Positions 1,974 through 14,632 of a stretch of 15,057 bases of DNA are shown here, piece by piece (position 1 is the first letter of the stretch; every line of letters begins with the position of its first letter). The position numbers and the translations under genes were made by a program. The notes beneath the pieces were generated by a model. It made no database searches, was not told the origin of the DNA, and saw nothing but the letters and a program-made list of their open reading frames with translations. This DNA is from an uncultured archaeon (GTDB lineage: Archaea > Asgardarchaeota > Hermodarchaeia > Hermodarchaeales > Hermodarchaeaceae): NCBI GenBank assembly GCA_964347045.1, contig CAYFXC010000030.1:930-15986 (forward strand), in the 5' to 3' direction.

Positions 1974-3119
1974 ATGGCAACTGAAGAAGAAATGGTCACC
2001 GCCAAACCCTTGGTGGTTGACAACGGCACCGGCCTTAGCAAAAACGGCTACGCCGGTGAAGACCAGCCACGCAGCGTGTTCCCCACGCTCATCGGCTACC
2101 CCAAGTATCCTGCCTACATGACCGACGTCGAACACTACACCCGCGAATACTACATCGGCGAAGAAGCCCTCCAACTCCGCGGCGTCCTCAAACTCGTCTA
2201 CCCCATCGCCCACGGCCAAATCACCGACTGGCCCGCTATGGAAAAGATCTGGCACTACACCTTCTACAACGACCTCCGCATCGACCCCACCGAACACCCC
2301 ATCCTCCTCACCGAGGCCCCACTGAACCCCCGCGCCAACCGCGAAAAGATGGCCGAAATCATGTTCGAAACCTTCAACATCCCCGCCATCTACGTCGCCA
2401 TGCAAGCCGTCCTCAGCCTCTACGCCTCCGGCCGCACCACCGGCCTCGTCATCGACTCCGGCGACGGCGTCACCCACATCGTCCCCATCTACGAAGGCTT
2501 CGCCCTCACCCACGCCATCAGCCGCGTCGACTTAGCCGGCCGCGACATCACCGAATACCTCCGACGCCTCCTCCGCCAACGCGGATACAGCCTCACCACC
2601 ACTGCTGAACGCGAAATCGTCCGCGACATCAAAGAAAAACTCTGCTATGTCGCACTCGAACCCGAAAAAGAAACCAAACTCGCCGAAAAAGTCGCCGGCA
2701 TGGAAAAGAAATACATGCTCCCCGACGGCAGCACCCTCACCGTCGGTGCTGAACGATTCCAGGGACCCGAAGTGCTCTTCAATCCGGGCGCCATCGGCGT
2801 CGAAGCCCAACCCCTCGACGACGCCATCGTCGAAGCCGTCCGCAAATGTGACGTCGACCTCCGACGTGATCTCTACGCCAATATTGTTCTTTCTGGTGGA
2901 ACCACCATGTTCCCCGGCCTCAAAGAACGCCTCCGAAAGGAGATCATCGAACAGATCCCCGAAAACGTCGAAGTCAAAATCGTCGCCCCACCCGAACGGA
3001 TGTACTCCGTCTGGATCGGCGGCTCCATCCTCGCCTCTCTAAAGACGTTTCAGCGCATGTGGGTCACGAAAAAGGAATACATGGAACAAGGCGCTGGTGT
3101 TATTCATCGGTGCTTCTAA
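1974..3119 (+). CDS. Actin (Asgard lokiactin-type, eukaryote-like)
   Basis: Canonical actin motifs throughout: [129 protein letters not shown]-terminal IHRCF. Strong C-ending codon bias. Confidence 0.98.
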
Positions 3120-3170
3120 ACTAGCCGATTTTTGGGAGGCCTGTCCTCCCCTTTTTCATTTTTTTATTTT
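3060..3170 (+). repeat. Repeat R1: native actin 3' end ([19 protein letters not shown]) + terminator; master copy of the array repeat
   Basis: TGGGTCACGAAAAAGGAATACATGGAACAAGGCGCTGGTGTTATTCATCGGTGCTTCTAA, then GGGAGG-CCTGT-CCTCCC and a T-tract. Confidence 0.95.
3134..3170 (+). terminator. Hairpin + poly-T terminator of actin
   Basis: GGGAGG(3134-3139)/CCTCCC(3145-3150) stem followed by TTTTTCATTTTTTTATTTT. Confidence 0.8.
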
Positions 3171-3184
3171 TGGTTAAGTGGTGA

Positions 3185-4318
3185 TTAGATTTCTTGGAAT
3201 TGAAAAGCTCGTTGCCGAAGGATTTTGTGCTTTTTGTGTATTGGGAGTGCTGGATCGATTGGATGGTCTTTTCTGTCAACGAGTATAGCCTTTAGCACAG
3301 CTTGCTTGTCGAGTCCTTCATAGTAACTTCCAACCTTCAATTTGACACCGTCAATAAACCCACCTAGATTGAGGAATTTTTTCGCTTGATGGAGTTGTGC
3401 GGTTTCTATCATCTCGGTTGTTGTGTTGAATGAAAAACCTCGGGTTTCGAGGTATTTTTTCCATTGTACTTTTAGTAATGGATGTTTGCAACCTAATGTA
3501 AGATGTGGATAAGGGAATCGACTATCCCGTGTGAATTTTGGATTGATTGATCCTTCTGTACTCATAGCTAGCCGAATTACGAAGTTGTGAATTGTGGTTG
3601 GAATGGTTGGGTCTGATAGAAATTGCATTGATGGTTGGGGGTTTTCTTGAAGGTAATCGTCCCATGATTGTCCGAGTTTGGGTCGTGTTCGGTAGATAGG
3701 GCTGAGTTTGAGGAGTTCTTCGAGCATGAGTTTGGTGTCGTGTTTTCGGTTGTAGGTGGTGTAGTAGGCTTTGTGGCCTTGTTTGCCGGCTTTGCTCCAG
3801 TAAGGTTTGAAGAAGGTGGATGGGGGTTGGTTGTAGTGGTAATGGTTAAGGTCGGCGAAGATGGCATGGAGGGATTCAGCCTTGTTAGTGAAGGTAATGT
3901 AATGGCCACGGCCTGTGCGTTTGCCTGCACCGCCGTCGGTGATGAGCATGATGGCGATGAGGTGAGGAAGAAAGGGTTTGACGTTGGGGTGTTGGAGGAG
4001 TTGGGGGACTTCGGTGGAGAGAGGGAAGGTGGGGGCTTTAGATCCGCGGCGAAGGAGTTGGGCGTCGCGGAGGGGGCGGAGCGGTTTGTTGTATCGACGG
4101 ATGATGTTTTGGATGGTGTCTTGGGTACAGTCTTTTTCTTGGGCAAGTTGGAGGCTGCTTTTTTCTTCGCAAGTGTAGTCACAGACAATCTTGAGTTCCG
4201 TGGCGATGTCAAATTTGCGTTGGTAGGTGGCTTTAATGCCTGGTTGGGTCGTTTGGCGAAGGTGGTAAATGGGGCAGGTTGGGCATTTCTTAGGAAAGTA
4301 GGGTGGGTCGGTAGTCAT
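3185..4318 (-). CDS. Free-standing double-motif LAGLIDADG-like endonuclease with N-terminal CxxC and HTH
   Basis: Motif 1 'LIAIMLITDGG' followed by 'YITFTNKAESLHAIFADL'. Motif 2 'VIRLAMSTEGSI' followed by 'LTLGCKHPLLKVQWKKYLETRGF'. Both show the LAGLIDADG helix ending in D/E-G, then beta-strand and helix. N-terminal 'CPTC' and HTH-like 'SSLQLAQEKDCTQDTIQNIIRRY'. Recognised by eye, not by HMM. Confidence 0.65.
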   Translation of the reverse strand: MTTDPPYFPKKCPTCPIYHLRQTTQPGIKATYQRKFDIATELKIVCDYTCEEKSSLQLAQEKDCTQDTIQNIIRRYNKPLRPLRDAQLLRRGSKAPTFPLSTEVPQLLQHPNVKPFLPHLIAIMLITDGGAGKRTGRGHYITFTNKAESLHAIFADLNHYHYNQPPSTFFKPYWSKAGKQGHKAYYTTYNRKHDTKLMLEELLKLSPIYRTRPKLGQSWDDYLQENPQPSMQFLSDPTIPTTIHNFVIRLAMSTEGSINPKFTRDSRFPYPHLTLGCKHPLLKVQWKKYLETRGFSFNTTTEMIETAQLHQAKKFLNLGGFIDGVKLKVGSYYEGLDKQAVLKAILVDRKDHPIDPALPIHKKHKILRQRAFQFQEI

Positions 4319-4758
4319 GGTTCGTCACTCTGGCAGTGGTGAGGAACGGTGACGCCGTTGAGATCGCCGGTGTTTGTGAAATGGAGGATGAGACGGCATT
4401 GAAGATGGGTGTGGGTGAAGTCGGTCCAGTCGGGTCGTGGGGTGGTGATAGTGGTGTCGTCATCGAGTTGGAAGGTGCATTCGGTGTCTGTGAGGGTGGT
4501 CAAGGTGGCGAAGATGGCCTGTTCGCCGGGGATTTCGTAGAAGATGTGATCATTGTTGTTGTCGAGGAGTTCTGCACCACAGCTTTTGAGGTCTTGAATG
4601 AAGATGATTCGGTCCTTGAGGGCTTGAATCATGTCATCCCACGTGTGGCAGTCGTCGGCGAGCCATTTGAAGCGCATGATGTGATGCGTTGCCGCATCGA
4701 GTTCATTCAATTCATCTTCAGTGAGGTAGGTTGAGAGTTTTTCATAATCGATTTTCAT
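4315..4758 (-). CDS. Hypothetical protein, translationally coupled to the endonuclease gene
   Basis: 147-aa ORF. Its TGA overlaps the next ATG (ATGA, 4315-4318). Same C/A-rich codon style as its neighbour. Confidence 0.7.
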   Translation of the reverse strand: MKIDYEKLSTYLTEDELNELDAATHHIMRFKWLADDCHTWDDMIQALKDRIIFIQDLKSCGAELLDNNNDHIFYEIPGEQAIFATLTTLTDTECTFQLDDDTTITTPRPDWTDFTHTHLQCRLILHFTNTGDLNGVTVPHHCQSDEP

Positions 4759-4853
4759 GATGGTTCACTTCTGGCGGGGCGCGGGTTTTGGTTGGTTTTT
4801 ATGCGTTATGGTTCTCAGGAAAAGGCGATTAAAACCACACAGCTGCGGACTCG

Positions 4854-4905
4854 TGGGTCACGAAAAAGGAATTCATGGAGCATGGCACTGGCGGGATGGT
4901 CAATG
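4854..4905 (+). repeat. Repeat R2: degenerate actin 3' end (WVTKKEFMEHGTGG...), no terminator
   Basis: TGGGTCACGAAAAAGGAATTCATGGAGCATGGCACTGG; the first 19 nt are identical to the native actin copy. Confidence 0.8.
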
Positions 4906-5562
4906 TTAAAGGACCGCTTGGGTCCCAGGCGGCAGGGGGGACAGGTCAAGGGATTCGAACCGGTTCCCTTTCAGATCTAGCTCTTGGAGGTGTTGGCAGT
5001 GTTGGAGGGGGGTGAGGTCGAGGCTTTGAAGTTGATTGGAAGATAGATCGAGTGTTTTTAGGTGTTGGCAGTGTTGGAGGGGGGTGAGGTCGAGGGTGTG
5101 GAGCTGGTTGACATTGAGCCACAGTTCGTGGAGGTGTTGGCAGTGTTGGAGGGGGGTGAGGTCGAGGGTGTGGAGCTGGTTGTAGGAGAGGATTTGTATT
5201 CGGAGCTGGGTGCAGGTGGTCAGGGGGGTTATGTCGACGGTTTGGAGCTGGTTGTAGGCCAGGTTGAGTATTCGGAGCTGGGTGCAGGTGGCGAGGGGCG
5301 TGAGGTCGAGATGTGGGAGTCGGTTAACGTTGAGCCACAGTTCGTGGAGGTGTTGGCAGTGTTGGAGGGGGGTGAGGTCGAGGGTGTGGAGGTTGTTGAA
5401 TGCGAGACTAAGGCTTTGGAGACGGGAGCAGTGTTGGAGGGGGGTGAGGTTGATGCTCGTGAATCCGATATTTTCAATCCTGATGACGTTAACCTTTGAG
5501 TCGTATTCAGGGGTTTGCCGTTCGTCGCCTGTCACGTCGATGTAGCGGAATTGAACACCCAT
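4906..5562 (-). CDS. Leucine-rich repeat protein (24-aa LRRs)
   Basis: About 7 repeats of LxxLDLTPLxxCxxLxxLxLxxNx. Likely start ATG 5562 (MGVQFRY) after GAGGGA. The ORF-track start (5643) lies inside repeat R3. Confidence 0.9.
   Translation of the reverse strand: MGVQFRYIDVTGDERQTPEYDSKVNVIRIENIGFTSINLTPLQHCSRLQSLSLAFNNLHTLDLTPLQHCQHLHELWLNVNRLPHLDLTPLATCTQLRILNLAYNQLQTVDITPLTTCTQLRIQILSYNQLHTLDLTPLQHCQHLHELWLNVNQLHTLDLTPLQHCQHLKTLDLSSNQLQSLDLTPLQHCQHLQELDLKGNRFESLDLSPLPPGTQAVL
4930..5460. repeat. 72-bp tandem coding repeats of the LRR gene
   Basis: GGTGTTGGCAGTGTTGGAGGGGGGTGAGGTCGAG recurs at 4989, 5061, 5133 and 5349 (72-nt phase). Confidence 0.9.
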
Positions 5563-5633
5563 AGAGCATCCCTCATCGGAACCTATCACGTCTACAAGTT
5601 CAAATGTTTGCCGGTCGGGTGATCGGTCACCAG

Positions 5634-5739
5634 TGGGTGACAAAGAAAGAATACATGGAGCAGGGTGCTGGAGTTATCCACCGCTGCTTCGAGGTAGCTG
5701 AATTTTGGGAGGCCTGTCCTCCCCTTTCTCTCTTTTTTT
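5634..5739 (+). repeat. Repeat R3: actin 3' end ([19 protein letters not shown], stop replaced by GAG) + terminator
   Basis: 19/19 amino acids identical to the actin C-terminus; hairpin GGGAGG-CCTGT-CCTCCC at 5707-5723 plus T-tract. Confidence 0.95.
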
Positions 5740-5831: not shown

Positions 5832-6617
5832 TTGGTGATGAAGGGTGGGGGTAAACGTCGTTGGGTGCGGATTGTTGCTCTGGTGTTGGTGGTTTTAATT
5901 GTACTGGGGGTTGGGGGATATGGGCTCTTGTGGGCGGGATTGAGTAGGTGGCCTGGGTCCTATACGTATACGGAGAGTCGGATCTTTGATTCGGTGAAAG
6001 AAGGGGCCGCGTTGAGGGAAGCGGAGCTATTCGATTACTCAGTGTTTTTGGTCGGAGACAATGAGACCTTAGCACCATATAGCTACTATCGGGGTATGGT
6101 GGAATATTCGGTGTTGCCGCTCAGCGAATTGCCGTTTCTTGCTAATGCGACACTTGCCCAGTATCGGCTGATAAACCACACGTTCAATCCCTTTCTCATA
6201 TTAGGGAAACGAACAATCACCTATATTGCAAATAGCACTTATTTTCCATCGCTGAATGTGACACTCAACGCAACGGCATTGGGTTCGAACCAGATGAGTC
6301 CTTTGGTGTTTGCCAACCCGAATGGGACCATTGCGGAAACATGGACTAGTGGCGCGTGGCGTGGAGGCTACTGGAACGGAACTGATTATGTGAGTTTTGA
6401 GTATGTGCGAAATAGAGGCTTTGTCGGACCGCAGTTCCTGTTACAAAATCACACTGATGTCTATTTTATCGATATGTTGTTCACAATCCTTCGTGATGGC
6501 GCAGGATCGCGTTCATTCTTTGGTGATATGTTTCGGTATATTCAACGTGTGATTGTGGATGCAACGGGACGAGTTCTCTTTGTATCATCAGCTCAAGATT
6601 ATCTAGCTTGGATTTGA
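5832..6617 (+). CDS. N-terminally anchored membrane/secreted glycoprotein, unknown function
   Basis: KRR + hydrophobic helix (WVRIVALVLVVLIVLGVGGYGLLW); 9 N-x-S/T sequons in the remainder. Exact start uncertain (5832-5838). Confidence 0.75.
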   Translation: MVMKGGGKRRWVRIVALVLVVLIVLGVGGYGLLWAGLSRWPGSYTYTESRIFDSVKEGAALREAELFDYSVFLVGDNETLAPYSYYRGMVEYSVLPLSELPFLANATLAQYRLINHTFNPFLILGKRTITYIANSTYFPSLNVTLNATALGSNQMSPLVFANPNGTIAETWTSGAWRGGYWNGTDYVSFEYVRNRGFVGPQFLLQNHTDVYFIDMLFTILRDGAGSRSFFGDMFRYIQRVIVDATGRVLFVSSAQDYLAWI

Positions 6618-6687: not shown

Positions 6688-6795
6688 ATGTGTGTGACGA
6701 AGAAAGAATACATGGAGCAGGGCGCTGGAGTTATCCACCGCTGCTTCGAGGTAGCTGATTTTTTGGGAGGCTTGGTTTCCTCTATCTCGTTTTTC
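6688..6795 (+). repeat. Repeat R4: actin 3' end ([20 protein letters not shown], stop replaced by GAG) + eroded hairpin
   Basis: ATGTGTGTGACGAAGAAAGAATACATGGAGCAGGGCGCTGGAGTTATCCACCGCTGCTTCGAGGTAGCTGA...GGGAGG at 6765. Confidence 0.93.
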
Positions 6796-6882
6796 TAAGT
6801 TGTGAGAAGTTTGTGTGGCTGGATTGAAATGGAATGGCTTTTGAGGTTAGGCGGGGTAATGGTTGGAAAATTTGACTAGGAG

Positions 6883-7680
6883 TTGGTGGTTGATTTGGAA
6901 GGTGAAGGTTTGAAGGAATTGCCTGAGGTGGGGCATTATGTGGATGTGAACGGGCTCCATATGTATTATGAGGATCAGGGTCAGGGGGTTCCGTTGATTT
7001 TAGTGCATGGTGGGTTGCTGACGGGGAGTCTTGGGTGGGGGGATCTCAGGAAGCGATTTGCCCAGCAGTTTCGTGTGATTGTTCCCGATTGTCGGGGCTG
7101 TGGTCGAACGGATAATCCCCAGGGCAGTATGGATTATCGGGTCATGGCCGATGATATCGTTGCATTAGCCCAGTCCTTGGAGTTGGTGAATCCGATTATC
7201 GGTGGATGGAGTGATGGCGGACAAGTTACATTGGAAATTGGAATCCGGTATCCGGATGTTGCGAAAGCCCTCGTGGTGGGGGCCGCACAGCACGAATTGT
7301 CACCAAAGACAAAGGAGGGCCTGTTGTCAGTTCGTGATTGGCTTAAATCCGAACCAGAACTTACAGCGTCGTTGAGAGCTGCGCATAGCCATGTCTACGG
7401 AGCCGAGTACTGGGAAACATATGTCAACAAGCAGATTCAGATGTGGACTAACCCATCGAACTATCCACAGGACGATATTAAGCGAATCAAGGTGCCCACG
7501 CTCCTCATCGTGGGGGATCAAGATGAAGCAGTCCCCCTCGAAACCCAAATCGAAATGCTTGAGCTGATGCCACAGGCAGAATTAGCCATCATCCCCAATA
7601 TGACGCACATGAATTATGTGAACGAACGCAGTGCAATCTTCTTTGCCGTTGTGATGGACTTCCTTAAACGGATCTCCTGA
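6883..7680 (+). CDS. Alpha/beta-fold hydrolase
   Basis: Oxyanion HGG, 'PDCRGCGRT', nucleophile elbow GWSDGG, 'PTLLIVGDQDEAVP' and catalytic His in 'PNMTH'. Start uncertain by a few codons. Confidence 0.92.
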   Translation: MVVDLEGEGLKELPEVGHYVDVNGLHMYYEDQGQGVPLILVHGGLLTGSLGWGDLRKRFAQQFRVIVPDCRGCGRTDNPQGSMDYRVMADDIVALAQSLELVNPIIGGWSDGGQVTLEIGIRYPDVAKALVVGAAQHELSPKTKEGLLSVRDWLKSEPELTASLRAAHSHVYGAEYWETYVNKQIQMWTNPSNYPQDDIKRIKVPTLLIVGDQDEAVPLETQIEMLELMPQAELAIIPNMTHMNYVNERSAIFFAVVMDFLKRIS

Positions 7681-7691
7681 GAAAAAAGATC

Positions 7692-7726
7692 TTTGGGAGG
7701 CCTGGTCTCCCTTTTCTCTCTTTTTT
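7692..7726 (+). terminator. Repeat R5: hairpin/poly-T half of the actin repeat only
   Basis: TTTGGGAGGCCTGGTCTCCCTTTTCTCTCTTTTTT, near-identical to the R1/R3 terminators. Confidence 0.8.
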
Positions 7727-7792
7727 ATGGGTGGGGTGGGTGGAAGGTGGGTTTTTAGGGTGTGAGGTGGGTTGGTGAGGGGTGAGGGATGA

Positions 7793-8791
7793 TTGTTGGT
7801 TTTGGATTTGGTTGATAAATGGTTGTTAATTGAGTTAGGGGCGAACTGTCGGCTGTCGTATCAGAAGTTGGCGCGTCATTTTGGGTTGACGGTCAATGGG
7901 ATTAAGAAACGGGTGGAAAAGTTGCGGGAGATGGGGGTGATTTTAGGGTCTCTTTTGGTCTTGAATCGGGGGATCGTGTTTGGTTCTCCCCGACATTATT
8001 GGTTCATGTCGCAGTTGTGGGTCGATGAATCGAGAGACGATGAACAGCATTTCATTGAACAGGCAAAGTTTCCTGAATTGGGTTTAAGTTATTTGAAAAC
8101 AACTCGGAACACCATTCTTCTCTCCGGGCGTGTATACGATCTTGCCCGGTATCTTGAACTAGTGAAATTCATTCAACATCTTGAAGGGGTGCATAAATCA
8201 GAAACTGAAGTGTTGAGAGGCTTGTTTGTTCCAGGGCTACTCCGCAATGCACGACAAATCCCGCAGCTCACAATCAAAAGGACCTGTGTTGAGCACGATT
8301 TCACAAAAGATCAACTGTTGTTACTCCACTATCTTAAGGATGACCCACGAATGCAAGTAACAGAACTTGCGGCTAAGACGAAATTTTCGCCAAAGCGGGT
8401 GCGTAAAATCTTAAATATCTTCCACCAAACTCGGTGTGTAGTGTTTACTATCGTGCGGAATTTGAGTGCAGCGAAGCACACCGGTGCATTGGTAAGGATC
8501 ACAATAGATGAAACTCAAACTACCCCGGAGGATTTTGCTCGCTGGATAGTTGAAGCCTATCCGTTTGAATTTCGAATGATTTTTGCGGTGGTCGATAAAC
8601 CCAATCAACTGTGGCTTTCGATTTCTGCCCCACATATTCAAACCATTGATGCGATAGCCGAAACTATCCGTTCTACTCCTTTCACCCAACACACAGACGC
8701 CCTTGTCCTTTTTGGAGCAGTCTTTGGTGACAAAACCAGTCCTTACTATGATCGCCCTCTCGAAACGCTCCTCAAAGAAGCTGGTCTGTAA
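7793..8791 (+). CDS. Tandem (double HTH) Lrp/AsnC-family transcriptional regulator
   Basis: 'LDLVDKWLLIELGANCRLSYQKLARHFGLTVNGIKKRVEKL' and a second HTH 'LLLLHYLKDDPRMQVTELAAKTKFSPKRVRKIL'. Confidence 0.88.
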   Translation: MLVLDLVDKWLLIELGANCRLSYQKLARHFGLTVNGIKKRVEKLREMGVILGSLLVLNRGIVFGSPRHYWFMSQLWVDESRDDEQHFIEQAKFPELGLSYLKTTRNTILLSGRVYDLARYLELVKFIQHLEGVHKSETEVLRGLFVPGLLRNARQIPQLTIKRTCVEHDFTKDQLLLLHYLKDDPRMQVTELAAKTKFSPKRVRKILNIFHQTRCVVFTIVRNLSAAKHTGALVRITIDETQTTPEDFARWIVEAYPFEFRMIFAVVDKPNQLWLSISAPHIQTIDAIAETIRSTPFTQHTDALVLFGAVFGDKTSPYYDRPLETLLKEAGL

Positions 8792-8811
8792 TTAGCACTT
8801 GAATAATGCCC

Positions 8812-8905
8812 GAAAAGAAGGTATACATGGAGCAGGGTGCTGGCGTGATCCTTCGCTGTGTCTAAAATCCTTGGATTTCTGGGAGGTTCCTGCTCCCATT
8901 CTTTT
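8812..8905 (+). repeat. Repeat R6: actin 3' end ([17 protein letters not shown]) + hairpin
   Basis: TACATGGAGCAGGGTGCTGGCGTGATCCTTCGCTGTGTCTAA (TAA 8863-8865); GGGAG/CTCCC stem at 8881-8897. Confidence 0.9.
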
Positions 8906-8944
8906 GTTGGTGCTGAGTGTGGCTTGATTGAGGAAAGTTGGGTG

Positions 8945-9652
8945 TTAGAATTCGGTGATGGGTTTGAGGTATTGGGCCATGCCGAGGGTGAATTGGGCTT
9001 CTGCGGGTGACACTGCTCGTCCGTCAAAGTGTGTGCGTTCGACAAATTCGGCGAAGTGGGTTACCAGGTCTTCAGGGTCGTCGTAGGCGGCGATTTTGTC
9101 GAGGGTGTCTAGGCCGGCGTCGTAGAAGAGGCGGGCGCGTTTTTGTTTCAGTCCTGGGATGCGGGCTAGATTGCTGAGTTTTACTAGTTCTAGGATGGTT
9201 TCTTCTGGTAGGTTGGTTTCTTCGGAGAGTTTCTCTCGTTGGGCTTTGGTTGTGGTGCTGGCGAGGAGTTGGGCGGCGGTTCGAATATCATGGGCCGAGA
9301 GGGTTTTTGCGACTTGGGGATTGACGCCGGTGAAATCTTTGAGGTTCAGTGCCTCTAGCGAGATGATTCCTAAAATTTCGTTAGCGGCGTGATAGAGATC
9401 TTGGTCTGCTGTGAATCCGTAATAGGATTTTAGCGCGTAGAAGTAGCGGTTGATCCTTGGGCGTCGAAATTGCGGGTCCAGCCAGGTGAAAAATGCGTGG
9501 AGGTCCTCGGGTTGTTGGGTGTCAACACTGTGTTGACGATACTTTTGAAGATAGTCAAAATATTCTTTGGATAGTCGAATAAATTGAGTCATCGTATTGG
9601 CGGGGGTTTTTTGGTCCTGTAAATAAGTTCGAAACCCTTTTTCATCAAACAT
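8945..9652 (-). CDS. DUF4332-like (HhH) protein with N-terminal integrase SAM-like/core-binding-like helical domain
   Basis: C-terminal 'LKDFTGVNP..AKTL....IRTAAQLL.....REKLSEETNLPEETILELVKLSNLARIPGL..KRARLFYDAGLDTL' is typical of DUF4332. N-terminal 'FRTYL...NT...F..YL...EDL.AF...L....INRY..ALKSYY.F' resembles the tyrosine-recombinase N-terminal domain. Likely start ATG 9652 after GGAGTGA; the track start 9766 is inside R7. Confidence 0.75.
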   Translation of the reverse strand: MFDEKGFRTYLQDQKTPANTMTQFIRLSKEYFDYLQKYRQHSVDTQQPEDLHAFFTWLDPQFRRPRINRYFYALKSYYGFTADQDLYHAANEILGIISLEALNLKDFTGVNPQVAKTLSAHDIRTAAQLLASTTTKAQREKLSEETNLPEETILELVKLSNLARIPGLKQKRARLFYDAGLDTLDKIAAYDDPEDLVTHFAEFVERTHFDGRAVSPAEAQFTLGMAQYLKPITEF

Positions 9653-9743
9653 CGTGTTCACTCCACTTAGGAAACAAGCTGATATTCGTTTCTTATGTTT
9701 CTTGAGTATAAATTGTCGCGTTTTTGAACTTTCACTATCAAAT

Positions 9744-9850
9744 TGGGGTATGAAAAAACAATACATGGCGCAGGGTGCTGGCGTGATCTACCGCTGCTTC
9801 TAAACGGGTCTTCACATTTTGGGAGGCTTGCCTCCCTTTTTTTCTTTTTT
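9744..9850 (+). repeat. Repeat R7: actin 3' end (WGMKKQYMAQGAGVIYRCF*) + terminator
   Basis: TGG 9744 to TAA 9801-9803, same 57-nt spacing as actin; GGGAGGC-TT-GCCTCCC at 9821-9836 plus T-tract. Confidence 0.93.
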
Positions 9851-9942
9851 GGTGGTTTCTGGTTGAGTTGATCTAAGGTGTGGATTCCGAGGAGTATTTA
9901 CGTGATGGTGAGCATATAGGAGGGTGGTTGGGTGGTTTGGGA

Positions 9943-10992
9943 ATGCCAGTGGATCTTACAGACAAACGGATTATCATGTTGCTAATGGAGAATCCACGCA
10001 CATCCTATCGGGCCTTGGGACGAGCACTGGGATTATCGGTGACGGCCGTACGCAACCGGGTGTTGAAACTTGAAGCCAGCAACGTCATTCGCCAATATGT
10101 GCTCTATCCAAGCTATGCCATGCTGGGGGCGTCGTTATGTACAGCCATTCTGAGCATCGCCAACCCGCCTCCCAGTGACGAGTTCCGAGAGCGCCTTGGA
10201 GCTCATCCGATGATTGAATGGGTAGATTTCCTTGCTGATGGGAATGTGATGTGTTATGCCACCTATATTGGTTCCAAGGGATTAGACGAACTCACCTTAT
10301 TCTTGCACGAGCTGGAAGCGGTCAATGACATTGAATTTCATACCCTGCTGGTTGAAGAAGGCAAGAAATTAACTCTTACTTCGATGCATCTTCAGGTCTT
10401 GCGGTGCCTTCGAAAGGATGTTCGCATGCCCGTCAGCGAAATTGCCCAACTCACTCGACTCACTCAACGGCGCGTTCGAAAACTCTTAGCCGATCTGATA
10501 GGCACCACGGGATCTTTTAGCGGAGAATGGTTTCATGAAAAAGGATGCGGAGATTATCGCAGCGCCCAACAATGTTTTCATCCCCGTGTCAATTGTGATG
10601 TGGCCGAAGGTGGTTCGACACGGTTTCTCGCCCGGATTTCATTTCGTGGCGGCGCTGAACAGCGACGAAAGATTGTGGAGGTCTTAAAACGTGAATATCC
10701 TCTCGAATACTGGTTTAGTCGCGCGAGTGCTTCCGCTCCCGTTCTGTTTTCCATGTTCTTTGTAGATGTCGCTAATTACTCGCCACAAATCATCCAGCGC
10801 ATCAAAGAGCTGGATGGCGTTGAGTCCGTGCGGCCCATTGTCAATTATGCTCACCACTACTACCCGGGCTTAATTGACCGGTTCTGGGAGCAATTATTCA
10901 GCCAATCTAACCCTCATGCCAAAACACAGTGTGGTTGGATTCAGTTCGAATGTGCACACCGTTTCGAAGACACAGGGAGGTTCCGAAGTTGA
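9943..10992 (+). CDS. Tandem Lrp/AsnC-family transcriptional regulator
   Basis: 'VDLTDKRIIMLLMENPRTSYRALGRALGLSVTAVRNRVLKL' and a second HTH 'LQVLRCLRKDVRMPVSEIAQLTRLTQRRVRKLL'. Start taken at ATG 9943 by alignment with the paralogues (track start 9880). Confidence 0.88.
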   Translation: MPVDLTDKRIIMLLMENPRTSYRALGRALGLSVTAVRNRVLKLEASNVIRQYVLYPSYAMLGASLCTAILSIANPPPSDEFRERLGAHPMIEWVDFLADGNVMCYATYIGSKGLDELTLFLHELEAVNDIEFHTLLVEEGKKLTLTSMHLQVLRCLRKDVRMPVSEIAQLTRLTQRRVRKLLADLIGTTGSFSGEWFHEKGCGDYRSAQQCFHPRVNCDVAEGGSTRFLARISFRGGAEQRRKIVEVLKREYPLEYWFSRASASAPVLFSMFFVDVANYSPQIIQRIKELDGVESVRPIVNYAHHYYPGLIDRFWEQLFSQSNPHAKTQCGWIQFECAHRFEDTGRFRS

Positions 10993-11135
10993 CATTCTGT
11001 AACCTCGTCTTATAAAGCAAGGTACTTTTGTAAATCTGTGACTTCACGTGGGCTAATATGTTACCGTCTGCCCTCTTGCAGCTGGTGGGGGTTGTCTTCA
11101 CAATTGGAGGGATACCCCCTTGGAGGAACTCGAAA

Positions 11136-11957
11136 ATGGTTTCTATGAAAACGAAATGGACAATTTCATTGTCCACAATTGTAGCCCTGAGCCTGCTATT
11201 TTTAGGCCTGTGTTGGGGGTTCCCCTCAGCTGGGGCAATGCAAACGCCTGTCTGGTCGGATAACTTCAATGACGGCAACCTCGATGGATGGACCGTCTTT
11301 GAAGGGTCCTTCTCGGCAACTACTCTTCGAATGGAATCTGGTACAGATCTCTGGAATTTCGCATCCCATCCAAGTACGGTGACGACAGGTGAATGGCGAT
11401 TTACAGTCTGCGTTGATGCAATTGCGGGTCCCGCTGTGGCTTTTATGGCCACAACTACCTCTGGAGTCGGTCTTGCCTGTCCAAGTACTTGCTACCTCAT
11501 TTTCCTTAGTCCTCATGGTGGCTGGATTCGTTTGTATAAACTTGAATCTGGAAGCCAGAGTATCTTGGGGGGATATGATATCGATATTGTCTTGGGTACT
11601 GTCTTTGAGGTCATTGTGACACGGGATTCCAATGGACAGTTTAATGTGTGGATCGATGGCACCCATCGGATTTCAGCTGTATCAACCAACATCGAAAGTT
11701 CATCTTATTTTGTCGTTAGGTTCCATGAAGGAGGATACATCGACAACATCCGGGTCTATGACGAAATACTAACCACTACGGGTACTGAAACAGAAACTAC
11801 CACGGACACCACAACCACAGAAGACGGAACATTCACGGGATGGCAGCTTCCGCCACTGCCCGTTGAAGCGATTGGCATAGGCATTGGTGTCGTAGCCATC
11901 ATCATCCTCATCGTTGGGTTGGTTCTGCTTCTCCGACCCAAGAAAATAGAATCGTAA
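11136..11957 (+). CDS. Cell-surface protein: signal peptide, beta-sandwich (ConA/LamG-like) domain, Thr-rich linker, C-terminal TM anchor
   Basis: Signal peptide KTKW+hydrophobic; 'VWSDNFNDGNLDGW...GEWRF...VIVTRDSNGQFNVWIDG...IDNIRVYD'; TTTGTETETTTDTTTTE; TM followed by RPKK. GGAGG at 11122 precedes ATG 11136; TTATAAAG at 11010. Confidence 0.8.
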   Translation: MVSMKTKWTISLSTIVALSLLFLGLCWGFPSAGAMQTPVWSDNFNDGNLDGWTVFEGSFSATTLRMESGTDLWNFASHPSTVTTGEWRFTVCVDAIAGPAVAFMATTTSGVGLACPSTCYLIFLSPHGGWIRLYKLESGSQSILGGYDIDIVLGTVFEVIVTRDSNGQFNVWIDGTHRISAVSTNIESSSYFVVRFHEGGYIDNIRVYDEILTTTGTETETTTDTTTTEDGTFTGWQLPPLPVEAIGIGIGVVAIIILIVGLVLLLRPKKIES

Positions 11958-11985
11958 GGCTATCAGACAGCATGGAGTCTTATCT

Positions 11986-12053
11986 GGGGAGGCCTGGTCT
12001 CTTATCCATCCGTTGTCAGGGGAAGCTTGGCCTCCCCTTCGCCCCATTTTTTT
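11986..12053 (+). repeat. Repeat remnant R8: two eroded copies of the terminator hairpin
   Basis: GGGGAGGCCTGGTCTC (11986-12001, matches R5) and GGGGAAGCTTGGCCTCCCC (12019-12037) followed by TTTTTT. Confidence 0.6.
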
Positions 12054-12102
12054 GGCTAGCAGAAAATGTGAATGTAGACAAATGAGGGAAGGACTTGAAG
12101 AA

Positions 12103-12531
12103 ATGAAGTATTCAGACTTTGTACAAGCATACAAGGACATTCGAACCAAAGTACAGGCTTCATCTGTTGAGGCTGAGGACGAAGGGTTAGTCCTGATCCA
12201 TGAAACAGAGTGGGCTCAAGTACTTCTGGTTCATACCCCACAGAAGGCCGATACTATCAAGCTTATCGTCGAAGTGTCCTTGCCAAGTTGGGTTCATGAG
12301 TTGAGTTTGCCGGGAACTGCCAGCGAACAGTCCTCAGAGTATACACCACAATTGCAGAAGGTGTTAAAGGAGCAAGTGCGTCATCTCGAATACCTCCTCA
12401 CGTTAAGTCATGCAGGATTTCAACTAGCGATAATCGCGGAAGAAGGGTTCTGGAGTGCGTCGACACTCTTACAAGACGCTCCATCTAGGGATCTATTCCT
12501 TCTCCTCGCTCCTCCGGAAGTCACCCTCTAG
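12103..12531 (+). CDS. Hypothetical protein
   Basis: Open frame with protein-like composition. ATG 12103 or 12082 preferred over the track start 12013, which lies in the repeat remnant. Confidence 0.7.
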   Translation: MKYSDFVQAYKDIRTKVQASSVEAEDEGLVLIHETEWAQVLLVHTPQKADTIKLIVEVSLPSWVHELSLPGTASEQSSEYTPQLQKVLKEQVRHLEYLLTLSHAGFQLAIIAEEGFWSASTLLQDAPSRDLFLLLAPPEVTL

Positions 12532-12564: not shown

Positions 12565-12672
12565 TGGGTGACAAAGAAAGAATACATGGAGCAGGGTGCT
12601 GGCGTGATCCATCGCTGCTTCTAAGCGGCCTTCACCTATTGGGAGGCGTGCCTCCCTTTTTTTCATTTTTTT
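12565..12672 (+). repeat. Repeat R9: intact actin 3' end ([19 protein letters not shown]) + terminator
   Basis: 19/19 aa identical with TAA at 12622-12624; GGGAGGC-GT-GCCTCCC at 12641-12656 plus T-tract. Confidence 0.96.
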
Positions 12673-12731
12673 GTGTTGATTGAGTGATTTTGATGGGGTT
12701 TGCCCGTGGGGTATTTACGGGTGGGTGATTA

Positions 12732-13727
12732 TTGGTAGGGGTGGAGGGTGTTGTTGTGACAGTGGATGATGTTGATCGACGGTTGGGTTTGGAGTTGATG
12801 GGGAATGCACGGTTGTCGTATACGGTGTTGGCGCGGGATTTGGGGTTGTCGGTGAATGCGGTGAAGAAGCGGGTGGCAAAGCTCATGGAGCGTGGGATTT
12901 TGGAGGAGTTTGGGGTGTACGTTAATCCGGAGTTGTGTTATGAGGGAGTGCAAATCAATGAGGTGTTTGGGTGGGTAGCGACGGACGGGGCCGAAGAGGA
13001 GGAAACGTTCATTCATCAGGTTGGTGGGTTTCCGTCAATTCATTCTGTCTCAAAGACTACCCGCGATACCTACATGTTTAATGCAATGGTTCCGGGCTTT
13101 GAGGGGATTTCTAGCATGGGTCGATTTCTTGAAAAACTTCCGGGTGTGACTCACCTTGAAATGGATCCAGTGTTGTATTTGGGGTGGCCCCCTGGGGTGG
13201 TGGGTCGGAAGTTTTCCACTCCACGTAGAGTATACGATTATACTTTTTCGAAGCCTGATTTGTTGGTTTTGCGATGTTTGAAGGAGGATCCGAGGATGTC
13301 GATTTCAAGGATTGCTAAACAGACGGGATTAACACCACGGCGTGTTCGGAAAATTCTTGACATGTTTCATGAAACCAGGGTCGTGGTGGTGTACGCGGAT
13401 ATTAATGTCGAGGCGGCTGGGTTTATGAGGGCTGTCCTGCGTGTGAAAATAGATTTGGCTGTTCAAAGTCCTAAGGCGTTCCGGAATTGGGCATATCAGC
13501 TACATCCGTTTGGATGGCTGGGCACCTATTCGTGTGTTAACCGTCCTTCAACGCTTCTTCACTATATAGGAGCAGAAAATATAATCAGTATTGAAGAATT
13601 GGCGAAAACGGTTAAGGCTTCTCCCGCTGTACAGGCTGTTGAAACCATTATACTCTACCGTGAACACATATTTCATGGGAAATGGCACCAACGCGTTGAT
13701 GAACTGCTCAGAGACGCTGGGCTTTAA
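12732..13727 (+). CDS. Tandem Lrp/AsnC-family transcriptional regulator (closest paralogue of 7793-8791)
   Basis: 'VDDVDRRLGLELMGNARLSYTVLARDLGLSVNAVKKRVAKL' and a second HTH 'LLVLRCLKEDPRMSISRIAKQTGLTPRRVRKIL'; ends LLRDAGL* versus LLKEAGL*. True start probably a GTG some codons downstream. Confidence 0.88.
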   Translation: MVGVEGVVVTVDDVDRRLGLELMGNARLSYTVLARDLGLSVNAVKKRVAKLMERGILEEFGVYVNPELCYEGVQINEVFGWVATDGAEEEETFIHQVGGFPSIHSVSKTTRDTYMFNAMVPGFEGISSMGRFLEKLPGVTHLEMDPVLYLGWPPGVVGRKFSTPRRVYDYTFSKPDLLVLRCLKEDPRMSISRIAKQTGLTPRRVRKILDMFHETRVVVVYADINVEAAGFMRAVLRVKIDLAVQSPKAFRNWAYQLHPFGWLGTYSCVNRPSTLLHYIGAENIISIEELAKTVKASPAVQAVETIILYREHIFHGKWHQRVDELLRDAGL

Positions 13728-13752: not shown

Positions 13753-13832
13753 CAGGGTACGAGCGTTATTCACCGGTGCTTCTAAAATGGCTGTTTCCCT
13801 TTGGGAGGCTTGCCTCCCTTCTCTCTTTTTTT
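13753..13832 (+). repeat. Repeat R10: 5'-truncated actin 3' end (QGTSVIHRCF*) + terminator
   Basis: CAGGGTACGAGCGTTATTCACCGGTGCTTCTAA (TAA 13783-13785); GGGAGGC-TT-GCCTCCC at 13803-13818 plus T-tract. Confidence 0.9.
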
Positions 13833-13960
13833 CAGGGGATTTTTGTTGTGCGGTTTGGTGTGTTCGCTTTGTGGGTTCAGTATGTATTTTTATAAGCGTA
13901 CATACAACTATGGGTGGTCGTTGAAGAATCTGCGATCGAATTTGGAGGGATTTACTTAGA

Positions 13961-14572
13961 ATGGCTTCAACTAAGTTGTTAGGCAAAACTATAGTGGTTT
14001 CGTTGGCATTGGTTTGTGTGCTTACGATTGCGATGATGCCGGTGGCTTCAGCCAGTTATGGTGATACACGGCGATTTCTTCGCCCGAGCCCCTTTGGTGT
14101 GGGACAAGCGAAACTCTTTGACGTATACATGGACGCGGCTTGGAATCCACCTGGTCGCATTGTTAGCTTGTTTACTGTTGGTATACCTTGGGGACAAAAT
14201 TGGCTAAACGTGTTGGATTCAAATGAGGCTCTTATGATTGCGCCTGTTGGAATCTTCGTTGAACCACCGGATTATACTGACACAAAATCCGCAAGAGAGT
14301 TTTACAGTAATTTCAGGTATGTCGTCACGATTGATGGGGAAGAACTTCCCACCGAAATAACGCCCCTGCGCCCATGCACTTTCGTGGATCGTGAAACCGG
14401 CGAAAAATATCGCTGGTGGGAATGGCGCTGTGGTGCCACCTTTAAAGCCGGTGAATTCGAAGAATACCTTGGTGGACTTGGAATATACACGATTCGCTTC
14501 CGATGGTTCCTAGGCGAGGAGTGTCTTTTCGATAGTGATTGGTTTGGCGTCTATCAGTTCCAACTAGTATGA
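13961..14572 (+). CDS. Secreted hypothetical protein
   Basis: Signal peptide (K..K + hydrophobic + ASA). TATA-like TTTATAAG at 13889 and GGAGGGA at 13944 upstream. Confidence 0.8.
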   Translation: MASTKLLGKTIVVSLALVCVLTIAMMPVASASYGDTRRFLRPSPFGVGQAKLFDVYMDAAWNPPGRIVSLFTVGIPWGQNWLNVLDSNEALMIAPVGIFVEPPDYTDTKSAREFYSNFRYVVTIDGEELPTEITPLRPCTFVDRETGEKYRWWEWRCGATFKAGEFEEYLGGLGIYTIRFRWFLGEECLFDSDWFGVYQFQLV

Positions 14573-14575
14573 AAT

Positions 14576-14632
14576 CTGTGAAATTCATCGAACCAAATGG
14601 GAGGCTTGTCCTCCCCTTTCTCTCTTTTTTTT
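14576..14632 (+). repeat. Repeat R11: terminator plus trace of actin codons
   Basis: GTGAAATTCATCG (compare actin GTGTTATTCATCG); GGGAGG-CTTGT-CCTCCC at 14599-14615, then CTTTCTCTCTTTTTTTT as in R3. Confidence 0.8.

Follow-up and report, generated by a model that had tools for sequence, protein, structure and literature searches.

Gene content and organization of the locus

The window, by which we mean the whole 15,057-nt stretch that was analysed (G000:C30:930-15986), comes from an Asgard archaeon whose relatives are labelled Promethearchaeota. The host gene encodes an actin of 381 amino acids (1974-3119, + strand; Pfam Actin, E = 1.8e-134). Its last 20 codons, stop codon and hairpin/T-run terminator (3057-3165, +) form the working tail, R1, and the M361/W362 codon junction (3056-3061, no strand) is the putative cut site considered below. 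Convergent with actin, and ending 65 nt past the actin stop, is a 377-aa ORF (3185-4318, -) that modelling identifies as a monomeric double-LAGLIDADG endonuclease. The stop codon of a 147-aa ORF that belongs to no known family (4315-4758, -) falls on the nuclease start, a 4-nt overlap. A conserved leader of ~70 nt, likely a promoter (4779-4847, -), marks the distal boundary of the element, and R2, the latest displaced actin tail (4853-4897, +), lies just beyond it. An earlier note on this DNA had bounded the nuclease module by R1 and R2; R1 is the working tail with its terminator, whereas R2 is a tail copy cut short after its first ~45 nt, the terminator having been lost by deletion. On the other side of actin, a 221-aa HTH-containing gene (993-1658, -) stands head-to-head with it and is present in all relatives examined.

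Besides the working tail, the window holds at least nine more copies, complete or incomplete, of the last 20 codons and terminator, all on the + strand and separated by cargo genes. R2 is followed by a leucine-rich-repeat protein gene (4906-5643, -; ORF and Pfam), then by a displaced tail with terminator (5633-5738) that differs from R1 by 11 silent and 2 amino-acid-changing substitutions, and by a gene for a 261-aa membrane-anchored protein (5832-6617, +). The next displaced tail with terminator (6690-6797) precedes an alpha/beta hydrolase gene (6883-7680, +), found as the same cassette in L001 at 79% DNA identity. A remnant consisting of the terminator only (7687-7727), a double AsnC-type HTH regulator gene (7793-8791, +; Pfam) and another tail with terminator (8810-8911) come next, followed by a DUF4332 protein gene (8945-9766, -) whose cassette recurs deep in another array. 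The tail with terminator at 9744-9851 and the AsnC-type regulator gene behind it make up the first cassette in G003; here that regulator is accompanied by genes for a 299-aa membrane protein and a 172-aa protein (together 9880-12531, +). Beyond the tail with terminator at 12565-12673 lie another AsnC-type regulator gene (12732-13727, +), an eroded tail with terminator (13757-13835), a gene for a 203-aa protein with a hydrophobic N-terminus (13961-14572, +) and a terminator-only remnant (14594-14630), after which an AsnC gene is cut by the contig end.

An assembly artefact at 2880-5014 is unlikely, as a contig from run X1, which may be the source sample, covers this interval with zero differences. 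A second run of ~8 tail copies, with cassettes paralogous to those of the window, lies on another contig of the same genome (G000:C13, 36000-58206), and a second actin locus with 76% DNA identity on C24 (1-2300) is cut by the contig end. Contigs C30 and C13 share no overlap and the bin has this further actin locus, and the two arrays were therefore left unjoined. The genome bin may contain two related organisms.

The nuclease and its relatives

The earlier note had recognised two LAGLIDADG-like helices and an N-terminal HTH in the 377-aa protein, and both are borne out by a structural model built with a 106-row alignment (pLDDT 94.2); folding from the single sequence gave a pLDDT of 35 and that model was discarded. 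The motifs IAIMLITDGG (residues 121-130) and IRLAMSTEGS (248-257) sit at the ends of helices 114-127 and 241-255, and a beta-beta-alpha-beta-beta-alpha pattern follows each helix in the predicted model. The HTH (residues 31-79) and the LAGLIDADG part (101-377) together account for the whole model. All of the top 50 Foldseek matches were LAGLIDADG proteins, and language-model features agree with this assignment (0.92). Both active-site positions keep an acid in nearly the whole alignment: at D128 (3935-3937) one is found in 105 of 106 rows, at E255 (3554-3556) in 104 of 106. These results confirm a monomeric double-LAGLIDADG endonuclease with an N-terminal HTH, for which catalysis is predicted.

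Neither the nuclease nor the 147-aa ORF has a Pfam match, Hint and zinc-finger families included in the case of the nuclease. A PDB sequence search with the close alignment returned no match, and one with the wide alignment returned non-significant matches only (1dq3, E = 0.37; 2dch, E = 0.75). Cysteines C12, C15 and C47 are conserved at the N-terminus of the nuclease; the CxxC and further cysteines before and within the HTH (residues 12-51, window 4166-4285, -) are a possible metal site.

In the wide structural search the regulator WhiA ranked first (Z = 15.2), tied with I-Tsp061I (14.7) and TliVMA (14.3) and followed by PI-PfuI (14.0). Together with the HTH, this ranking allows the protein to be viewed as a catalytically silent, WhiA-like DNA-binding regulator that lies beside actin by chance, the repeats having come from some other duplication. 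WhiA has the LAGLIDADG fold without the catalytic acids, and its HTH is at the C-terminus. The protein described here, by contrast, keeps acids at both active-site positions in nearly every row, and a regulator would not leave the gene stubs that we found behind old tails (see below). We regard this explanation as highly improbable.

Thirteen close homologues share 53-79% identity with the nuclease, and there are 357 further, more distant matches. The dN/dS ratio among the close homologues is 0.14-0.28, and one copy has an internal stop. The number and identity of these homologues, and their dN/dS, indicate that the ORF is not a chance reading frame. Several nucleases are mosaic, with breakpoints near codon 225-235; the L008 nuclease and that of the window are mostly 70-92% alike before codon ~235 but 43-59% alike after it. 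Crossovers within the gene could yield new target specificities. Two variants of the strand pair at residues 129-141 exist, and they do not follow overall identity. RNA contigs cover the relatives' actin and not the nuclease, and are uninformative on nuclease expression; among these contigs, no joint suggested an excised circle.

Displaced tails share a common left wall

Of 65 displaced tails that were scored, 64 start no more than 8 nt upstream of W362 or to the right of it: 27 begin at -8 to 0 and 37 are eroded rightward. Just as FBA1 fragments in yeasts begin at the cut of the WHO nuclease (PMC7282813), this common left wall leads us to infer a cut near 3056-3061, at M361/W362, 20 codons before the end of actin. 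R1 would then be the replacement end that the homing element brings along. The displaced tails R3 and R9 are without the left half of the inferred site.

Differences between the copies and the working tail are silent in 69% of cases, compared with 19% expected, which indicates that the tails diverged while coding. The actin protein is nearly invariant among relatives, but its last 80 codons are silently hypervariable: four-fold divergence among five alleles, whose pairs are not independent, is 0.26 over codons 20-300 and 0.43 over codons 301-381. As the earlier note proposed, recoding by silent changes may confer immunity to the nuclease. In one relative, a displaced tail begins a 369-aa ORF, such that the old actin end forms the N-terminus of a cargo protein (L010, reverse complement, 1465-2574).

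Cassettes begin at the repeats, and the same cassettes recur at different ranks in different arrays. Their boundaries are actin tails with terminators, and the cargo lies in both orientations (31 + and 25 -). Two results count against homing. Decay of tail copies with distance was significant in only one of nine arrays (L001), and the correlation between nuclease and tail distances, which bears on immunity by silent recoding, was non-significant (Mantel r = 0.19, p = 0.12, 10 loci).

A fixed slot, relics and bare alleles

The close nuclease family is confined to this genus among 400 Asgard genomes. All ten loci at which a close homologue could be placed, the window included, have the nuclease convergent with the actin stop and tail copies behind it. 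In an eleventh locus, that of G003, the same slot with the same leader is filled by a distantly related LAGLIDADG protein, which falls outside the well-supported close clade in a quick version of the LAGLIDADG tree; a nuclease thus occupies the first slot behind actin in 11 loci, with one intact copy per locus. The leader lies 3-11 nt from the first displaced tail in seven loci and next to the nuclease start in L007, and its core motif has only two occurrences in the genome. The 147-aa ORF is less constant. It has six homologues and no match above 0.78 in an Atlas search, and it is not a fixed partner: it is in the slot in four loci and absent or replaced in seven others. Because those loci carry a different ORF, several ORFs or none, we consider it an optional passenger.

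More distant relatives of the nuclease are not linked to actin: in another Asgard family they occur as free-standing genes at a variety of sites, and elsewhere they lie beside replication genes. One distant homologue appears to interrupt a radical-SAM-like gene (L029:601-1755), with non-coding flanks of ~230 nt and no Rfam intron match. An Rfam search of four loci gave no match, and a search of viral contigs found no relative and no viral carrier. Only 8 of the 19 genomes of the family yielded a near-identical match to the actin 3' end, a shortfall that assembly breaks at the variable array probably explain.

Older nucleases have left traces. Five relics of the nuclease 3' end occur at four loci, 12-24 nt behind older tails, in the strand and with the end position of the intact genes; these old stubs are 80-180 nt long. 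At L003 a leader relic lies directly after a truncated tail. No nuclease relic was detected in the window's own array, which counts against the homing reading.

Alleles without a nuclease were also found. In L086, actin ends on a tail that an AsnC cassette follows. From the start of the repeat, 2190 nt of this tail and cassette match, at 79%, the sequence that lies beyond the element in L020, the two loci representing different species and not a before/after pair from one strain. The window tail at 12565-12673 and its downstream flank likewise match, at 70% over 330 nt, the working actin end of this nuclease-free allele. L086 resembles a stage of a homing cycle at which the site is empty or the element has been lost; the same bare state would also arise if the stretch between R1 and R2 were excised. 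In the sister-genus genome G018, actin is followed by neither a nuclease nor an array. The earlier note's proposal that the actin 3' end is replaced is supported by the common left wall of the tails, the nuclease relics and this occupied/empty pair.

That cassettes begin at repeats and change rank, and that one array allele is nuclease-free, might also be expected of an island built by an integrase, with the recombinase encoded elsewhere, the actin 3' end serving as attachment site and the nuclease as its latest passenger; integrative elements use tRNA ends in this way. The genome does have two tyrosine recombinase (PF00589) genes, and the far ends of the arrays are not closed. Those genes, however, are on contigs C12 and C9, and neither array contig carries one, in agreement with the earlier report that the window lacks a recognisable integrase; no integrase gene was called near the nuclease-free array of L086 either. 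The DUF4332 protein of the window (8945-9766) has a weak integrase-N-terminal-like SAM domain without a catalytic domain. Were the nuclease a mere passenger, moreover, we would not expect it at the head of the array in 11 loci, nor its replacement there by a different LAGLIDADG branch, nor relics of it past older tails. The left ends of many copies are eroded rightward from one wall. An integrase is therefore unlikely as the builder of the array, and we give the island explanation little credence.

Base composition around the actin end

Rightward of every tail copy, the + strand is rich in G and T. GC skew over the first 100 nt is 0.51 where the cargo is on the + strand and 0.42 where it is on the - strand; it fades over ~400 nt, against a genome background near 0. 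Leftward, the body of actin has C at 0.83 of its four-fold sites (genome median 0.21), the highest fraction among 1370 ORFs. We rejected translational codon bias as an explanation for this C-richness, as the highly expressed genes for EF-1a, EF-2, thermosome and RNA polymerase have four-fold C fractions of only 0.17-0.30. In a scan of the whole genome for mirror skew the actin end was joint top (0.58, ~5 SD), and the tail and the nuclease C-terminus form a weakly skewed core between the flanks. This pattern is consistent with strand-biased mutation during repeated resection and refilling, in which each flank would receive one new strand and the copied core two. Strong skew was also seen at G000:C1 ~28650, within the region of the DNA polymerase II large subunit, and at C16:38016-39878, over a 621-aa ORF near ribosomal protein genes.

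Mini-introns in actin and arrays at other genes

Two inserts, one of 28 nt and one of 30 nt, interrupt the actin gene of G003 (L016/L021, G003:C32); both fold in the manner of bulge-helix-bulge introns, and computed removal of both restores the protein exactly. The 30-nt insert falls in codon M361, within the inferred cut site; the 28-nt insert is at E341, a second recoding hot spot. A frameshift in P0201 at the same place as the G003 insert suggests a second intron-bearing allele. An intron at the cut site may represent host resistance, a counter-move to the nuclease. A 31-nt insert of bulge-helix-bulge shape, read by eye, is present at codon 48 of the G018 actin (L023:3210-3240).

A second locus in the same genome has the anatomy of the actin locus. 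There (L066, G000:C3:86856-93762) a group-4-type NiFe hydrogenase large subunit gene with extreme C bias faces a convergent 656-aa ORF with LAGLIDADG-like motifs. This ORF has the leader motif seen at actin, and 5.6 kb away lies a displaced tail; the layout is repeated in six relatives, three of which have tail copies. The 656-aa ORF aligned neither to the window nuclease family nor to solved nucleases, and its motifs make it a candidate LAGLIDADG protein. At a third place (L067, G000:C26:20396-27050, and C19), the sequence immediately behind the 16S rRNA 3' end is present in four or five copies with accessory genes between them, and no nuclease was seen in the first slot.

The presence of similar arrays at two other conserved genes invites the view that the actin locus is a domesticated platform, where the host retains the nuclease to stimulate uptake or exchange of accessory cassettes. 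Purifying selection on the nuclease, the single intact copy per locus and a cargo that resembles working accessory genes common to several species are in keeping with such a role. Purifying selection is also expected while homing continues, however, and the relics, internal stop, bare allele and replacement of one nuclease branch by another fit a selfish cycle of gain, decay and loss. Domestication is compatible with a homing mechanism, but we think it improbable. A wider proposal joins the three loci: tail-swapping LAGLIDADG nucleases, as the entry engine for cassettes, would capture genes without an integrase at actin, the hydrogenase subunit and the 16S trailer, while tRNA-type mini-introns at the actin cut site would provide resistance and break repair would rewrite the composition of actin. 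We offer this combination tentatively; it is possible, though on balance doubtful.

A model for tail replacement

We place the probability that the actin end carries a homing element with tail replacement at roughly 80%. The fold and catalytic residues of the nuclease, its fixed slot, the shared left wall, the silent divergence, the relics and the bare and occupied alleles all support this reading, as do the mosaic nucleases, the internal stop, the mirror skew and the hydrogenase locus of the same anatomy. The element would consist of the replacement actin tail with its terminator, the convergent LAGLIDADG gene, the leader and optional passengers. In the cycle that we envisage, the nuclease would cut a susceptible actin allele at about codon 361/362. 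The left end would be repaired from a donor actin, copying the new tail and the nuclease and leaving actin intact, as the anatomy of the locus suggests. The right end, beginning with the old tail, would rejoin behind the element, at one of the donor's tail copies, within the old nuclease gene or through short homology, pushing the old tail and all that follows it downstream; the occupied and empty states observed are the basis for this step. Displaced tails, having no left half-site, would no longer be cut. Old nucleases would then decay or be deleted, leaving 3' stubs, while passengers remain and a bare allele becomes open to reinvasion, a course suggested by the relics, the copy with a stop codon and the bare allele. 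Each cycle would add one tail and its cargo, and recombination between tails would reshuffle the cassettes, such that no integrase is needed.

Tail-replacing homing has been published so far only for some yeasts and for fungal mitochondria. If the model is true, this third class of homing extends to prokaryotes, its target being the eukaryote-like actin of an Asgard archaeon, and integron-like cassette arrays can be reached without a recombinase. The 3' end and codon usage of this actin may then deviate from the species tree. An intron at the inferred cut would tie the gain of an intron by a protein-coding gene to pressure from homing, in a host that is a close prokaryotic relative of eukaryotes. 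The locus provides a testable enzyme, a putative cut site and a natural panel of alleles.

Comparison with known systems

A literature search, with subscription journals mostly outside its coverage, found no description of Asgard actin with homing endonucleases or cassette arrays, nor any paper that reports a system of this kind from archaea. The occupied and empty alleles at one site that accompany homing were seen here between species (L086 versus L020, and G018), not strains. In the protein itself, each of the two motif helices opens a domain of alpha-beta-beta-alpha-beta-beta-alpha order and both acids are present, as in monomeric LAGLIDADG homing endonucleases. It shares this fold and the two active-site acids with the archaeal intron and intein nucleases I-Tsp061I (2dch), I-DmoI (2vs8), PI-PfuI (1dq3) and TliVMA (7qsu), which it matches with Z scores of 11.8-14.7 and an rmsd of 2.2-3.2 A over 159-192 residues. 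It differs from them in lying outside any intron or intein, in its low identity (12-16%) and in having no Pfam match.

Integrons and islands at tRNA 3' ends resemble the window in that one enzyme gene heads a row of repeat-bounded, shuffled cassettes, which move as units and change rank. In integrons, however, the enzyme beside the array is the tyrosine recombinase IntI, whereas a nuclease heads the array here and PF00589 genes are found only on C12 and C9. Integron cassettes are co-oriented and bounded by attC palindromes; those of the window are bounded by former coding tails with terminators and carry cargo on both strands. Phage islands of homing endonuclease genes near essential genes have been proposed to mobilise neighbouring DNA, and the abstract of that report does not mention tail replacement or stacked tails (PMC10448857).

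The earlier note drew its analogy from fungal mitochondria, where endonuclease ORFs carrying a C-terminus are known from atp6 of Allomyces and from atp6, atp9, cox2 and nad3 of Glomus (PMC3630166). The analogy is sound in that the ORF brings a foreign 3' end and strands the native one downstream, as with R2 and the further copies here. Those ORFs, however, are mitochondrial and lie on the host strand, where they are transcribed together with the host gene and in some cases share its frame; as described, each gene has a single displaced end. The window, by contrast, belongs to a prokaryotic chromosome and has a convergent ORF with its own leader, at least 10 stacked ends and cargo.

A closer analogue is provided by the WHO elements found at FBA1 in Torulaspora and Lachancea yeasts (PMC7282813; bioRxiv 10.64898/2026.08.13.744650). 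In both systems a free-standing double-LAGLIDADG gene lies behind a conserved gene, the element consists of a new 3' end and a nuclease, displaced 3' fragments start at one site and the host gene shows raised diversity in its 3' part. Decay of the older nucleases is likewise common to both, here down to five short 3' relics in relatives, with none detected in the window. The differences are that the host is archaeal, the target is actin rather than FBA1 and only 20 codons are replaced. WHO is an HO/VDE-related, intein-like protein with a C-terminal zinc finger; the window nuclease has neither property and carries an N-terminal HTH instead. WHO genes form clusters of up to nine, where here there are stubs of 80-180 nt, and the spacers between tails contain unrelated cargo genes that are shuffled between arrays. 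The system in the window works like WHO elements and the fungal mitochondrial ORFs but is a member of neither group; its variant features are a prokaryotic host, the deletion of old nucleases and cargo cassettes that are shuffled without an adjacent integrase.
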